NCBI GenBank assembly: GCA_963726255.1
Contig: CAVSBL010000002.1
Span: 32,001 to 96,000 of the forward strand
Direction: 5' to 3'
Origin: Candidatus Bathyarchaeota archaeon
GTDB lineage: Archaea; Thermoproteota; Bathyarchaeia; 40CM-2-53-6
DNA: 64,000 nt
Shown here: piece by piece, positions 1,121-6,356 of the stretch
How positions within the stretch are numbered: the first letter of the stretch is position 1
How the letters are laid out: every line of letters begins with the position of its first letter
Notes under the pieces: model-generated
Database searches by the model: none
What the model was told of the DNA's origin: nothing
The model's input: the letters and a program-made list of their open reading frames with translations, nothing else
Translations under genes and position numbers: made by a program

Positions 1121-2074
<954 letters not shown>

Positions 2075-2916: not shown

Positions 2917-3396
2917 ATGGTTGAACGCCTAGACGCTTCCCGTGACTTTGGCGACGTTTTCGAGGTTGTCAAGAAATCTGCGGAGCATTCCCTGGGGCGT
3001 CGTAGAGCAGGCCTAATGCTGTATCTGGCTAAGCTGCCCAGGCACATTGGTGCGTTTCACACCATGGGGACAAACGGCATCGTCATGAATAGAACTATCC
3101 TCGACATGGTGACGCATGGCGCACGGTCACTTCGCGAAATCAATTCCTACGTGTATTCAATCCTGCTACACGAGTATTTGCATGCGCTCGGCTACGTGGA
3201 AGAACAGGACGTGCGAAAGCTGGTGTACGATGTCTCATTGCAAACATTCGGCCCAGAACACCCCGCCACCCAAATAGCCTCAAGAGGTCCAGGCGCCATG
3301 TTCCCCGAAATCTCACTTCATGATGCGCCAACAGAGACGCCTGACATTGAAGTAATTCCAGACCTCGAGAGAAGCAGCCAGCGGTACATCAGCTAG
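2917..3396 (+). CDS. zincin-like (HExxH) metallopeptidase-fold protein
   Basis: ILLHEYLHALG motif in a 159-aa ORF. Confidence 0.7.
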   Translation: MVERLDASRDFGDVFEVVKKSAEHSLGRRRAGLMLYLAKLPRHIGAFHTMGTNGIVMNRTILDMVTHGARSLREINSYVYSILLHEYLHALGYVEEQDVRKLVYDVSLQTFGPEHPATQIASRGPGAMFPEISLHDAPTETPDIEVIPDLERSSQRYIS

Positions 3397-5704
3397 CTAC
3401 CGTGTAAGATATTCGTCTATCCACAATTCTCTTCTTTGCTTCAGGCCAAAGCGTGAACGGCAGCAGACCGTACGATGAACGACCTAGGTGCGTGGTCCTG
3501 TCTGAGCCGCAATTGCTGCATTTCGGTGTGATTCCAAGGTCGGTGTGGTTGCAGACGCTGCAGGCTGAATAGTTCGCTGTATACGTCAAGAACTTGCAAC
3601 CATATTCAAACGCTCTCTCGGTGAGCTTCAAAAGAGCGGGCGCCGTGGAATCAGGGGAGATACAGACCACGCTGAGATGTCCGCCAGGCGTCGCTGATTG
3701 AAACCCCGATTCCATATCCAACCTGCTGTCGATAGTCATTTTCGTTGTCAAAGGAATGGTCGGCAAGTCGGTGTAGTACAAGAGGCCCCTAGATCCGTCT
3801 GCTACAATAACCGCCCTCCCATATTGCTCCATGTCCAATTCCGCGAGCCTACCCGCGGCTTCGTCCCCGGGCCGTTGTGAAACCAGAATGCGCAGCTCCG
3901 ATTCATCTGAGGCGGACTTTAGCAGGTTCGAAGCCTCTTGCAGGATTCTTAGGCCGAAATCAGCTGCCGCTTTGTCCCGTTCCATCCTGAGTCCGGTATG
4001 GGCGTCGACGGCTTCGTTCAGGCCAATAAATGAGAGATTGTAGGAAGAGTTCTTTTCGTAAAAGTAGGGTGAGGCGCCACCCTCCCCAGCCAAGAGAGGG
4101 AGCAGCGGTTGTTTCAGACGTTCGCTGACGAACTTTTTCTTGACTTTGAAACCTTCCACAGTTAACGCGACAGCCTCGCTAAGTAATGCTAGGAATTTTT
4201 CGTCGTTCTTCTTGGCCTCGTACGCTATTCGAGGAAGATTTATGAAAATAGTGTCCATGCTACCTGTTCTGATACAGTCCGCGTCCCAATGATTCGTCCA
4301 CTCATCGCCTAACCTAAGCCCCGTAGCCGAGTAACTGCTCTTTTCTTCGTCGCCAATTAGTTCGAAGAAGGGGATGCTGCGTTCTGCGGCCAGTTGGTGG
4401 GCTTTCTCAAGAATCAGTCTACCCTGCGCGTCACTCAGAGCCTTGCGCCTAACTTTTACTACAAGATGGGGCAAAACCGGCGGGCGTGACTGTGACATTT
4501 TCTGAAAAGCTTCGATTGTCGCACCGGCCAGCCGACTGCTTTCATCCGAGAAATCTGAATATTTGCCGGCGCTTTTGCCACCTGGACCGATCGCATTCTC
4601 CTGCGAAAGGAACGCTGGCATCGCCAAGTCAACTGAGACTGATATCCCTGCTAGAGGAGTGCTTGAGGGGATATCTTTCCGCAATGAAGTGAGGAAGTAG
4701 TAGATGCCGTTAGAAATGTCCTCCGCCGATCTTCCTTGGATGTATGGGGAGAGGAAAATGTTGAAGAATTCAAGCGTCTGCTCTCCTGAGACCTCGCCGG
4801 CCCCGAGTTCCAATACTTGGCGGACCAGTGCAAGCGCCGCTTCGAAAGTGTCGGGTGGTGATATTCCCGGGAGACTGTTCTTTAGGAAGTAACGGATGTC
4901 GTGAACAACTTCGTTTGGGGAAAGAATCCAGTTTTCCAAGTTAGCTATGTGAATCTCGCCCGAAAGGTGCGCATCCGCGAGTTTGTGAGGTAGGCAGTTG
5001 AGCAGAACATATTCCGAGAGAACCGACCTCGCCGACGAACGTTGAACGTAACCAGCGCTAAGCTGCTTCTCGCCCGCAGTTTTGATGAGTTGGGCCACAT
5101 CGTAAACTGGCATTCCAAGCCTTGTGAGCTTGTGGCGGTACTCCTCCAGTTTCTTCTCAATCAAAATCGCATTGACGAATTCGCGAATTAGCGGCGCAGT
5201 AAGGTAAGTCGTCTTTAATCTGACGAGCCTATCCTCAGCCTCGGCTGCTATCTCGTCTGCGATTTCTTGTGGGACGCCCGCTTCAACTACGAGTGACCTC
5301 GCGATCTTGTTCCTGTGGAATTCCTCTATTGCAAGCCTTGAAGATCTCACGTAGAGTTTGCCGCGCTTGACATTAACGTACTCGTCCAAGTCTCGAGCGA
5401 AGGATACGATCATTCGGCCGAGTTCAGTGACCTCGTACCGCTTTGTCTTCTTTTCAAGGGTCACTAGGCCTATGTCGGTTAGGCTTCGGAGATGATAGAC
5501 AAATTTGCCAGCGTCCCGCACAGGGTCAAGTTTGAGCTGGAACATTATTTCCGTATACTGGAGGGGGCCTTTGGTTGATAGAAGTCGTAAAATTTGTAGC
5601 CTTACGGGGGCAGACGCGGCGTCGAAAATGCCGGCGCCGACTCTCTCCGATGAACGAAGCAAGTGATTACCGCCTAGAAGATGGCTCGCAACCACCATAA
5701 GCAT
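3389..5704 (-). CDS. wHTH + ATP-cone + class III (anaerobic) ribonucleotide reductase-like fusion, catalytic residues apparently missing
   Basis: N-terminal ArsR-like HTH (RLQILRLL...AGKFVYHLRSL...YEVTELG); ATP cone (VRSSRLAIEEFHRNKIARSLVVEAG...LTAPLIREFVN); NrdD body (ADAHLSGEIHI, INLPRIA, IGLNEAV, GGHL, CSVC...CSNCGS). Confidence 0.85.
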   Translation of the reverse strand: MLMVVASHLLGGNHLLRSSERVGAGIFDAASAPVRLQILRLLSTKGPLQYTEIMFQLKLDPVRDAGKFVYHLRSLTDIGLVTLEKKTKRYEVTELGRMIVSFARDLDEYVNVKRGKLYVRSSRLAIEEFHRNKIARSLVVEAGVPQEIADEIAAEAEDRLVRLKTTYLTAPLIREFVNAILIEKKLEEYRHKLTRLGMPVYDVAQLIKTAGEKQLSAGYVQRSSARSVLSEYVLLNCLPHKLADAHLSGEIHIANLENWILSPNEVVHDIRYFLKNSLPGISPPDTFEAALALVRQVLELGAGEVSGEQTLEFFNIFLSPYIQGRSAEDISNGIYYFLTSLRKDIPSSTPLAGISVSVDLAMPAFLSQENAIGPGGKSAGKYSDFSDESSRLAGATIEAFQKMSQSRPPVLPHLVVKVRRKALSDAQGRLILEKAHQLAAERSIPFFELIGDEEKSSYSATGLRLGDEWTNHWDADCIRTGSMDTIFINLPRIAYEAKKNDEKFLALLSEAVALTVEGFKVKKKFVSERLKQPLLPLLAGEGGASPYFYEKNSSYNLSFIGLNEAVDAHTGLRMERDKAAADFGLRILQEASNLLKSASDESELRILVSQRPGDEAAGRLAELDMEQYGRAVIVADGSRGLLYYTDLPTIPLTTKMTIDSRLDMESGFQSATPGGHLSVVCISPDSTAPALLKLTERAFEYGCKFLTYTANYSACSVCNHTDLGITPKCSNCGSDRTTHLGRSSYGLLPFTLWPEAKKRIVDRRISYTVAS

Positions 5705-5855
5705 GCGCTGACGTTTAAAAAATTGTAGTTACCGCTATACCCCCATTATGGGGTTCAGAAATTCCCCATTCACAGCAATTGAGAATCTTTATTTTGGTTC
5801 GGCATGCGAGGAAGCGCCTCACAATGTAGGTGTTACGCGAGTGGATGAAGTGCGA

Positions 5856-6356
5856 ATGCGGGGAGCGGATTACAGTACCCTGGCGAAACTTGAAGAGGCC
5901 TTCGAACGAAAGGACCTTTCATTCTTCAAAACGTTCCTGCAAAACTCAAAGGGGCTCCCCCTCCTACTCCGAGTTCACGCAGTTTGCATGCTCGAGCACA
6001 TTGGAAACGAGGAAATGGTAGAGCCATTGTGCAAGGTCCTTGCGGAAGACCCTAGTCCCCTCACACGGCACGAAGCTGCGTTCACCCTTGGCCAGTTGGG
6101 TCACAGCTCAGCCGTGCCGGCATTGGTAGAGGCGATGCAACATGACGAGAGCCCAATCGTTCGACATGAGTCGGCCGTAGCACTGAGCTCCATAGGCGAC
6201 GATCGTGCAGTTCCTGATCTGAAGAAAGCAATCGAGGATAGCGATGAGGACGTCAGCAATTCAGCACTGATTGCTTTCGAGTATCTAGACTACTTACACC
6301 GAAGAAGAGAAAATGCTTCCGATAGGTTCGCGGTGAAACCGAAGATTAGGCTGTGA
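5856..6356 (+). CDS. HEAT/PBS-lyase repeat protein with two His-Glu motifs (DOHH-half-like)
   Basis: LTRHEAAFTLGQLG and IVRHESAVALSSIG repeats; in-frame ATG at 5856 preferred over the ORF-track start at 5748. Confidence 0.8.
   Translation: MRGADYSTLAKLEEAFERKDLSFFKTFLQNSKGLPLLLRVHAVCMLEHIGNEEMVEPLCKVLAEDPSPLTRHEAAFTLGQLGHSSAVPALVEAMQHDESPIVRHESAVALSSIGDDRAVPDLKKAIEDSDEDVSNSALIAFEYLDYLHRRRENASDRFAVKPKIRL

Follow-up and report, generated by a model that had tools for sequence, protein, structure and literature searches.

The gene at 3389 to 5662 on the minus strand of the window (the whole 64,000-nucleotide stretch of Bathyarchaeota DNA analysed, to whose positions all coordinates refer) encodes what the alignments indicate to be a non-catalytic paralogue of the class III ribonucleotide reductase (RNR) NrdD, with both active-site cysteines and the radical glycine replaced, and with a winged helix and an ATP-cone ahead of the former catalytic barrel. 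The function that we consider rather likely is that of an RNR-derived, ATP/dATP-sensing and autoregulated transcription factor for dNTP supply, similar in action to NrdR. The first-pass annotation had already proposed a repurposed, (d)NTP-sensing regulator, a reading that now gains support from synteny with RNR genes, from the constraint on the cone and the winged helix, and from a conserved box in the gene's own promoter. We infer that the protein binds DNA and nucleotides, and likewise which genes it targets and in which direction it regulates them.

Gene structure, domains and fold

The gene and the modules of its product are arranged as follows.

3389 to 5704, minus strand: longest open reading frame, 771 amino acids, ATG at 5704, stop codon at 3389-3391.
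3389 to 5662, minus strand: probable coding sequence of the winged helix-turn-helix (wHTH)/ATP-cone/NrdD-like protein, TTG start at 5662, 757 amino acids.
5669 to 5674, minus strand: GGCGGT, Shine-Dalgarno-like, 6 nucleotides 5' of the TTG start.
5402 to 5629, minus strand: winged helix-turn-helix, ArsR-like/DUF7347, residues 26-101, from a Pfam match.
5138 to 5353, minus strand: ATP-cone (PF03477), residues 118-189, the most conserved module.
5060 to 5137, minus strand: conserved cone-to-barrel linker YRHKLTRLGMPVYDV, residues 190-215, 81% pairwise identity.
3605 to 5044, minus strand: NrdD-type barrel of ten strands, residues 221-700, lacking the residues for radical chemistry, from Pfam, the AlphaFold2 model and Foldseek.

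The start at 5704, as annotated in the first pass, is corrected here. Translation probably begins at the TTG at 5662, because alignments with homologues begin at residue 15 of the 771-residue frame, which corresponds to this TTG, and because the DNA ahead of it is conserved among loci and includes the Shine-Dalgarno-like site. In loci L017 and L018 the equivalent position reads GGAGGT.

The succession of winged helix, ATP-cone and NrdD-like barrel, initially recognised by eye, is recovered by Pfam, and the class III RNR fold by AlphaFold2 and Foldseek. The winged helix (residues 26-101) matches DUF7347 with 35.7 bits (cut-off 27.6), HTH_5 (ArsR) with 21.9 bits (cut-off 22) and HTH_20 with 22 bits (cut-off 27); the closest solved sequence is the ArsR protein 6j05, a weak match (E = 0.073). 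Residues 33-92 adopt a helices-plus-hairpin topology in the AlphaFold2 model. The ATP-cone scores 21.9 bits in the protein search and 26.7 bits in a six-frame search (cut-off 25.8), and that of a Nitrososphaerales relative reaches 34.7 bits. It is divergent, with VRSSR in place of the canonical KRDG, a variant that the active paralogues of the lineage also carry. Within the linker, R190, R195, G197 and P199 are invariant in the homologue alignment. The NRDD domain (PF13597) covers residues 221-766 with an E-value of 3.8e-65 and a score of 221 bits, compared with 488 bits for an active paralogue, and the score for the NCBIfam NrdD equivalog TIGR02487 (240.9 bits) is under the cut-off of 326.35. 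The AlphaFold2 model (pLDDT 88.7, pTM 0.79) resembles the solved class III RNRs 8p2s, 4u3e and 1hk8, with Foldseek E-values down to 5e-29 and TM-scores on the target of 0.72-0.77.

In one wetland metatranscriptome run, three contigs (95-99% alike) cover portions of the gene, among them 4854-5757. Since neither transcription nor its strand and ends can be read from contigs of an RNA library, no conclusion on expression is drawn from them.

Loss of the catalytic residues

Residue correspondences were established from sequence alignments with four active NrdD paralogues of the same archaeal class and with PDB sequences. The positions concerned are listed below.

4910 to 4912, minus strand: E265, aligned in place of the beta-A active-site cysteine of active paralogues.
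4313 to 4321, minus strand: G462-L463-R464, the former finger loop, with Leu replacing the thiyl-radical Cys.
3464 to 3481, minus strand: R742-S-S-Y-G-L747, what is left of the glycyl-radical loop, Tyr replacing the radical Gly.
3509 to 3562, minus strand: Zn ribbon CxxC...CxxC, with C715, C718, C729 and C732 all kept.

In these alignments three positions required for radical chemistry differ from those of active enzymes, as the initial by-eye comparison had claimed. The beta-A region, RPFC(L/Q)xHD in active NrdDs, reads P-N-E265-V-V-H-D, and position 265 is Glu in all 121 close homologues. The thiyl-radical cysteine of the NrdD finger loop is described as part of an MGCR or MCCR motif (10.1101/2022.04.23.489257); where the active NrdDs aligned here have Q/M-C-C-R, the protein has T-G-L463-R, and the 121 close homologues have Leu (117), Met (3) or Phe (1) and in no case Cys at position 463. 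The glycyl-radical region, SR(V/I)(T/V)GY in active NrdDs, reads G-R-S-S-Y745-G746-L; Gly at the adjacent position 746 is found in no more than 81 of 119 close homologues, and many relatives have a shortened loop or none. In none of the alignments does a Cys, or the radical Gly, fall on a catalytic position. T4 N311 aligns with S482.

Among 80 related loci, none of the wHTH copies has an RxxGY motif, and G-C-R is still kept at 9. The loss of the catalytic residues appears to be family-wide. The zinc site, likewise noted in the first pass as retained, is intact in 119 of the 121 homologue rows, the remaining two rows being gaps at this place, and its four cysteines are invariant in the alignment that shows the invariant linker residues.

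Distribution and complement of RNR genes

The wHTH/cone/NrdD-like architecture is present in about 107 of the 151 Bathyarchaeia genomes sampled and in 103 of the 151 genomes of a phylum sample; since the compared genomes are related, these and all other counts over loci or genomes are not independent. The sources of diverged relatives call them Nitrososphaerales or Thaumarchaeota. Nitrososphaerales are aerobes.

In the source genome (98.5% complete) the gene is the single match to PF13597. Apart from it, the RNR searches find just a class II NrdJ (TIGR02504, 679.6 bits), which provides the genome with a separate active RNR. A second NrdD match was found neither in the source genome nor in any of the 11 family relatives sampled, and therefore a regulatory partnership with an active NrdD, the other function suggested in the first pass, is not the general role of the protein. 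No NrdG scores above the cut-off in the genome, with 41 bits as the best score for TIGR02495 (cut-off 131) and 27.5 bits for TIGR02491 (cut-off 126), which extends the earlier remark that no nrdG is encoded nearby to the genome as a whole. A glycyl-radical-enzyme activase from a different family (PFLE_PFLC type, TIGR02494, 359.7 bits), encoded elsewhere in the genome, is the sole activase found. Likewise, the genome has no match to NrdR (TIGR00244). The gene persists without the class III machinery.

Selective constraint

Compared with the nearest orthologue (L014), the gene has an overall dN/dS of 0.064, with 0.017 for the winged helix, 0.016 for cone and linker, and 0.070 for the barrel. Mean pairwise identity follows the same order, with 64% for the cone, 51% for the winged helix and 34-35% for the barrel. 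In the 19 genomes that encode both paralogues, the non-catalytic copy has a conserved cone (75.0%) and a less conserved barrel (48.4%), and the active copy the reverse (51.6% and 58.7%, respectively); the cone is better conserved in the non-catalytic than in the active copy in 168 of 171 genome pairs. Judged by these sequence comparisons, constraint has moved to the sensor module (cone) and the DNA module (winged helix).

Genomic neighbourhood

At 24 of the 66 informative Bathyarchaeia loci the gene is followed, on its own strand and within 3 kb, by an RNR gene, which is an active nrdD at 22 and nrdJ at 2 of them. In genomes G005, G011 and G017 the gene is directly upstream of nrdJ. In family f32, assigned to Nitrososphaerales by the sources, it is directly upstream of an ATP-cone RNR gene (nrdJ) at 17 of 18 informative loci, one of these 17 having been verified by Pfam. 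This synteny extends over two archaeal classes and involves RNR genes of class II as well as class III. Within the window itself it is not adjacent to an RNR gene, and its convergent downstream neighbour is the following.

1148 to 2074, plus strand: pyrB (aspartate carbamoyltransferase), in conserved synteny.

By BLAST, pyrB is found at 41 of 81 loci, and pyrI is located beside pyrB in relatives. We regard this tie as conserved synteny, with a functional link possible. A HEAT-repeat gene was rejected as a conserved partner: direct BLAST finds it at 8 of 81 loci, all from close relatives, and the 48 of 81 loci obtained from clustering are an artefact, the cluster having taken in antisense reading frames from the gene's conserved 5' portion.

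A conserved box in the promoter

A conserved element precedes the gene.

5713 to 5731, minus strand: promoter box TAACTACAATTTTTTAAAC, about 50 nucleotides upstream of the TTG, presumed BRE/TATA with an overlapping putative operator.

The family consensus of the box, ACTnYAATTTTTTAAAC (17 nucleotides), recurs in 45 of 72 upstream regions, whereas the flanking sequence is not conserved. In other genomes, the sole match with at most one mismatch is situated before this gene (5 of 5), and no further copy of the 19-nucleotide box was found in the source genome with up to 3 mismatches. A position weight matrix of the box, whose information content is inflated since the pattern itself served to pick the sites that went into it, gives four hits of at least 12 bits in the source genome, the own promoter being the top hit and the third-best (13.4 bits) being located about 90 nucleotides upstream of the probable nrdJ start. 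With the same inflated matrix, similar boxes are found before nrdJ in G011 (21.3 bits) and G017 (19.6 bits), the score stays below 12 bits at 26 of 30 nrdJ promoters and 16 of 20 active nrdD promoters, and hits are obtained for 2 of 30 nrdJ (plus 2 hidden by the choice of start codon) and 4 of 20 active nrdD. Other reading frames score as high in 15 of 669 cases, several of which are mis-tagged family members.

An operator shared between the gene's own promoter and those of RNR genes was also sought by a blind 18-mer similarity test, which gave no signal at 22 loci: the mean best match to the gene's upstream region was 13.0 both for the RNR gene and for other reading frames, and the RNR gene ranked strictly top at 3 of 22 loci (4.6 expected). 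No similarity is seen by eye between the upstream regions of nrdJ and pyrB. The 17-nucleotide box could be just an unusually conserved core promoter.

Proposed mechanism

The gene would have originated as a duplicate of nrdD whose product lost its chemistry and gained a winged helix while retaining the allosteric ATP-cone and, perhaps, the pockets for effector and substrate. The NrdD-type barrel would, judging from homology, retain the dimer scaffold of RNR, and the N-terminal winged helices of the dimer would bind DNA. One binding site would be the 17-nucleotide box over the BRE/TATA of the own promoter, resulting in autoregulation; further sites would be located at promoters of RNR genes. 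The ATP-cone, possibly together with remnants of the nucleotide sites of the barrel, would read the balance of ATP and dATP, and the nucleotide state would alter conformation or oligomeric state and thereby switch DNA binding. ATP or dATP at the cone of a solved NrdD is reported to shift the oligomer equilibrium and the order of domains (PMC11226230); going by that report, the signal path from cone to oligomer would already have been in place in the parent enzyme.

Alternative functions

Four other explanations were weighed. The strongest, which we nevertheless consider unlikely, is regulation of RNR at the protein level, with the protein acting as a non-catalytic subunit, a sequestering partner or a chaperone of NrdD or NrdJ and the winged helix serving protein contacts. 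Tight synteny with RNR catalytic genes would be expected of such a protein, as would the retained NrdD dimer scaffold fold, and a glutaredoxin-like gene is located between the gene and nrdD in 13 loci. However, the gene is linked to class III as well as class II enzymes, which are too different for a common heterodimer interface, and neither the source genome nor the 11 relatives sampled offer a second NrdD as partner. The winged helix is moreover strongly constrained and matches DNA-binding families, and the conserved, gene-specific promoter box also argues for a transcription factor.

Quite improbable is an enzyme with a new, non-radical nucleotide chemistry in the old pocket, involving for example E265, H268 and D269. 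None of these three residues varies among the 121 close homologues, and purifying selection acts on the barrel (dN/dS 0.07). However, in the wider family the position equivalent to E265 is occupied by Q, G, T or I, and H268 and D269 are inherited from active NrdDs. The finger loop plus a further stretch is deleted in the Nitrososphaerales clade, and the barrel is the least conserved part of the protein.

That the protein still functions as a class III RNR, using unorthodox radical residues such as G746 as a radical glycine shifted by one position, is very hard to sustain. The fold and the Zn ribbon are kept and a glycyl-radical-enzyme activase exists elsewhere in the genome, but finger loop and beta-A both lack a Cys, G746 varies among close homologues and its loop is absent from many relatives, no NrdG was found in the genome, the score is under the NCBIfam NrdD cut-off, and relatives occur in the aerobic Nitrososphaerales.

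A decaying pseudogene of a lost nrdD, as the lost catalytic residues and an orthologue split into four reading frames (L034) might suggest, is refuted by the evidence for selection and conservation: the frame of 771 codons is unbroken, the residue loss is common to homologues under strong purifying selection, and the architecture recurs throughout the class and the phylum sample.

Comparison with known systems

The sensing transcription factor proposed here has its closest functional analogue in NrdR, the bacterial RNR repressor composed of a Zn ribbon and an ATP-cone. Both would join an ATP-cone to a DNA-binding module (predicted for the protein described here), both are linked to RNR genes and probably autoregulated, and a reading of ATP/dATP for RNR transcription is proposed here as well. 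NrdR is absent from this genome, a gap that the protein would fill. Homology between the two is limited to the cone, and TIGR00244 gives no match. NrdR binds DNA by its Zn ribbon, whereas the protein would use its N-terminal winged helix; NrdR is bacterial, whereas the protein is archaeal and includes a complete RNR barrel of 550 residues.

With NrdD (P. copri 8p23, S. thermophilus 9d3x, T4 1h78, T. maritima 4coi) the protein shares the fold (Foldseek E-value 5e-29), the ATP-cone, the cone-barrel linker, the NLPR motif and the Zn ribbon, and in many relatives an active NrdD paralogue is encoded next door. In contrast to NrdD, it has an extra winged helix and is without the finger-loop Cys, the beta-A Cys, the radical Gly and an NrdG.

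Transcription factors with enzyme folds include the ROK repressors (sugar kinases), MocR/GabR (aminotransferases), BirA and PyrR. The logic is the same, a helix-turn-helix combined with a former or current enzyme domain that senses a metabolite of the pathway, but the sensor here would be the enzyme's own allosteric domain. No RNR-derived transcription factor was found in the literature searched. The N-terminal domain is closest by sequence to ArsR/SmtB proteins (HTH_5, HTH_20, NF033788, PDB 6j05), with marginal scores, and accounts for just a tenth of the protein.

Implications

New in this analysis are the range of the family, its position upstream of RNR genes and the conserved box in its own promoter. 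NrdR is described as rare in archaea (PMC9110341), and by that account the control of archaeal RNR transcription is largely unknown. The family described here provides a candidate regulator of archaeal RNR that occurs very widely in Thermoproteota, among them the ammonia-oxidising archaea, which are abundant worldwide.

We note that hundreds of genomes, some of them of aerobes, label the protein 'anaerobic ribonucleoside-triphosphate reductase', a label that would wrongly credit these genomes with a class III RNR in metabolic reconstructions.

In its widest form, to which we assign an even chance, the proposal is that of a phylum-wide archaeal master regulator, derived from RNR itself, that would repress or activate nrdD or nrdJ (depending on the lineage) together with its own gene according to the ATP, dATP and dNTP pools, and that would serve as the archaeal counterpart of NrdR from anaerobic Bathyarchaeia to aerobic ammonia oxidisers. 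If true, an enzyme would have come to regulate the pathway in which it once worked, its allosteric domain now serving as the sensor, and the family would represent the long-missing archaeal counterpart of NrdR.

Domain architecture and loss of catalytic residues

The gene at window 3389..5704 (minus strand) is one uninterrupted frame of 771 codons. Its product, here called dead NrdD, combines a DUF7347 winged helix (residues 26-101, above the Pfam cut-off; matches of the N-terminus to ArsR-type HTH families are marginal), an ATP-cone (residues 118-189, scoring at or around the Pfam cut-off) and an NrdD barrel (residues 221-766, E = 3.8e-65). An AlphaFold2 model, built from an alignment of 65 sequences, is confident (pLDDT 88.7, pTM 0.79), and the structures it matches best are class III ribonucleotide reductases (RNRs) solved for P. 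copri, S. thermophilus, T. maritima and T4, with E values as low as 5e-29 and TM scores of 0.72-0.77 on the target. The three-part fusion noted in the first-pass annotation is confirmed. Translation probably begins at the TTG at 5662, since homologue alignments begin at residue 15, upstream ATG codons fall in unconserved DNA, and a GGCGGT/GGAGGT site stands before the TTG in relatives.

The protein was aligned with four active-looking NrdD paralogues of the same archaeal class and with PDB sequences. E265 occupies the place of the beta-A cysteine (RPFCxxHD), G462-L463 that of the finger-loop cysteine pair (Q/M-C-C-R), and Y745 that of the radical glycine of SR(V/I)(T/V)GY; S482 is the counterpart of T4 N311, and the Zn ribbon is intact. 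The missing residues, first noted by eye, are therefore confirmed, and their loss is conserved: among 121 close homologues (54-94% identity) position 463 is L in 117, M in 3 and F in 1, with no Cys at all, every one of the 121 has Glu at position 265, and G746 is kept in only 81 of 119. The CxxC...CxxC site was also correctly read as retained, with all four cysteines present in 119 of 121 rows and the remaining two gapped there. Across 80 related loci from species genomes the RxxGY motif is absent from every winged-helix copy, and many of these copies terminate shortly past the Zn ribbon. G-C-R is still kept on the finger loop at 9 of these loci, a pattern of sequence that suggests a stepwise loss of catalytic residues. 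The NCBIfam NrdD equivalog gives 240.9 bits (cut-off 326), and dead NrdD does not qualify as a catalytic NrdD.

Distribution of the family

At least 579 species genomes carry related loci, and almost all of these genomes bear the name Bathyarchaeia. In the class sample 144 of 151 genomes have a match with E no higher than 1e-10, 107 of the 151 with a strong full-length match including the winged helix (best E 1e-84 or better; counted from the table); matches of the other genomes are weaker and, among the matches listed, start behind the winged helix except for a short fragment in G117. The phylum sample contains 103 of 151 genomes with a match over winged helix and cone, unevenly by family (some 19/19, others 0/13). 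Clustered at 50%, the protein library includes 1884 related representatives; copies with a winged helix reach down to 27% identity. In one diverged clade the proteins are about 700 aa long and have the finger loop deleted; the sources name it Nitrososphaerales or Thaumarchaeota, and its annotations vary between anaerobic RNR, HTH protein and ArsR regulator. Some NrdD relatives have very long frames of 1150-1700 aa, which align in 2-4 stretches (representatives P0169, P0173, P0176, P0201, P0220 and others).

Selection and conservation

Relative to the nearest orthologue (L014, 85% identity) dN/dS is 0.064 overall; the winged helix (0.017) and cone plus linker (0.016) lie below the barrel (0.070). 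These values are approximate, as dS exceeds 1. The possibility that this copy is simply decaying is ruled out by the overall ratio together with family-wide conservation. Conservation over the 65 aligned sequences peaks in the cone (64% mean pairwise identity, with 36% of its columns conserved to 90% or more), followed by the winged helix (51%) and the barrel (34-35%). In 19 genomes holding both a dead and an active NrdD, this pattern is reversed between the paralogues: identity among active copies is 51.6% for the cone and 58.7% for the barrel, whereas dead copies show 75.0% (cone), 81.3% (linker) and 48.4% (barrel), the cone being better conserved in the dead copy in 168 of 171 genome pairs. 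The inversion therefore indicates that selection has moved to the allosteric domain and the presumed DNA-binding head, away from the catalytic barrel. One orthologue (L034:8028-10335, 89% identity) is broken into 4 ORFs in one genome assembly, by either a sequencing error or a genuine recent break.

Genomic context

The source genome (2.42 Mb, 98.5% complete) has dead NrdD as its sole PF13597 match. Its one class I/II large-subunit match is NrdJ, an adenosylcobalamin-dependent class II enzyme that has an ATP-cone and the active-site motif NPCGE (TIGR02504, 679.6 bits, cut-off 400) and provides a separate active RNR. The reported lack of a nearby nrdG extends to the whole genome, where neither an NrdG above cut-off nor an NrdR was found. 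A PFLE_PFLC-type glycyl-radical-enzyme activating protein (TIGR02494, 359.7 bits; L008:1147-2109, G000:C2 about 1511556-1512518) implies another glycyl-radical enzyme in this genome without active NrdD. A stand-alone ATP-cone (27.8 bits) lies in a 104-aa open frame at G000:C2:1191966-1192160 (+).

Features around the dead NrdD gene (window coordinates)
1148-2074, +, pyrB, convergent, downstream of the dead NrdD gene
2138-2890, +, ORF, kept in 12/81 loci
2917-3396, +, ORF, kept in 10/81 loci
5713-5731, -, box copy of the dead NrdD gene, from upstream-region comparison
5748-6356, +, divergent HEAT/PBS-lyase-repeat protein, 202 aa as called

The two ORFs between pyrB and the dead NrdD gene have no Pfam or NCBIfam match. 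At 41 of 81 loci pyrB is convergently downstream; relatives have pyrI next to pyrB, and pyrI likewise adjoins the homologous gene in a different family of the phylum (L014:12855-13322; L160:3696-4175). This neighbourhood may reflect either shared regulation or old synteny. The HEAT-repeat gene adjoins in only 8 of 81 loci and may start near 5856, because homologues align from residue 34-37. Successive repeats carry two His-Glu dipeptides with a spacing of 32 residues, which suggests a resemblance to the HE motifs that bind metal in deoxyhypusine hydroxylase. Clustering of antisense ORFs can produce a false conserved neighbour, as it did here. Long ORFs lie antisense to the conserved 5' part of the gene at many loci (window about 5400-5700; L017-L031), and ORF-based synteny counts call for caution in such conserved gene parts.

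The strongest new evidence is linkage to RNR genes. Among 66 informative Bathyarchaeia loci (at least 1.5 kb of downstream sequence), 24 have an RNR catalytic gene downstream on the same strand within 3 kb, namely 22 active-type NrdDs of two subtypes and 2 NrdJs. A glutaredoxin-like gene lies in between in 13 loci, and one locus has the order dead NrdD, active NrdD, SAM synthetase, CTP synthase. In another Bathyarchaeia family the gene is directly upstream of nrdJ in three genomes (G005, G011, G017) and separated from it by one ORF in two (G029, G053). Family f32 of the phylum sample, named Nitrososphaerales by the sources, has a homologue in 19/19 genomes; in 17 of 18 informative loci it is directly upstream of a same-strand gene whose product begins with an ATP-cone, and in one locus the two are divergent. 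One of these downstream genes was confirmed by Pfam as ATP-cone plus RNR large subunit, the rest were recognised from N-terminal sequence. Linkage to RNRs of two classes, and persistence without class III, argue for a regulatory rather than a subunit role. The NrdJ of G052 (L165, G052:C27; frame 1257-1276 aa) carries foreign sequence directly after the catalytic ...QCSAC that looks like an intein.

Promoter elements

Unaligned upstream regions share a box, ACTnYAATTTTTTAAAC, with sharp edges and unconserved flanks, 72-102 nt before codon 26; with up to 3 mismatches allowed, 45 of 72 loci have it. The copy at 5713-5731 is the sole match in the source genome at this threshold. For five other genomes the lone match at up to 1 mismatch always precedes the dead NrdD homologue; the reversed control pattern gives 0-3 matches per genome. 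A weight matrix built from box copies has only 4 matches of at least 12 bits in the source genome, and within the loci reaches this score for 50 of 81 dead NrdD genes versus 15 of 669 other ORFs. The box overlies the presumed BRE/TATA of the gene, where archaeal autorepressors usually have their operator.

The third-best matrix match in the source genome (13.4 bits) is located some 90 nt upstream of where nrdJ probably starts. Related elements precede nrdJ in G011 (21.3 bits), G017 (19.6), G005 (13.1) and G146 (10.1), and nrdD in G062 (17.3). Most RNR promoters score low, and a blind comparison of upstream regions of dead NrdD and RNR genes gave no signal. Target genes are supported mainly by synteny, the promoter evidence being weak. 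The longest nrdJ frame (G000:C2:1695752-1698511; entries L002, L099) is over-extended, the probable start being the TTG at C2:1695917 behind GAGGT. The DNA upstream of nrdJ contains a conserved region in two parts, a GTACA..TATAC box and, after it, TGTCGAAAACTATTAAA; this region is common to relatives of other genera including some with a different, cone-less NrdJ subtype. Intergenic DNA of f32, between the homologue and nrdJ or upstream of the homologue (L141-L158), contains a conserved inverted repeat with core CGATCATCG (arms up to 8 nt in L152) as well as several repeats that include TGATC; the element AGTCAyAAGTCTTATTTAC, also conserved, precedes the homologue. All three are candidate operators of this clade.

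A proposed nucleotide-sensing regulator

The best reading, which we consider reasonably probable, is an RNR-derived transcription regulator with proposed NrdR-like nucleotide sensing; synteny, conservation and the own-promoter box support the initial idea of an enzyme scaffold repurposed for this purpose. The RNR barrel would hold a dimer together, the winged helices would bind promoter DNA, and the ATP-cone would read ATP versus dATP and switch DNA binding. In the solved NrdD of P. copri, ATP or dATP bound at the cone alters the equilibrium of dimer and tetramer as well as the order of domains (PMC11226230), a precedent for the cone-to-oligomer signal path; NrdR (PMC9110341) is a precedent for the regulatory logic. 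A full-text literature search covering main texts gave no description of such a protein, nor is one mentioned in passages of the RNRdb paper, two RNR evolution papers and the P. copri paper. Dead NrdD represents a new, very widespread, RNR-derived family, with a proposed NrdR-like action yet outside the NrdR family.
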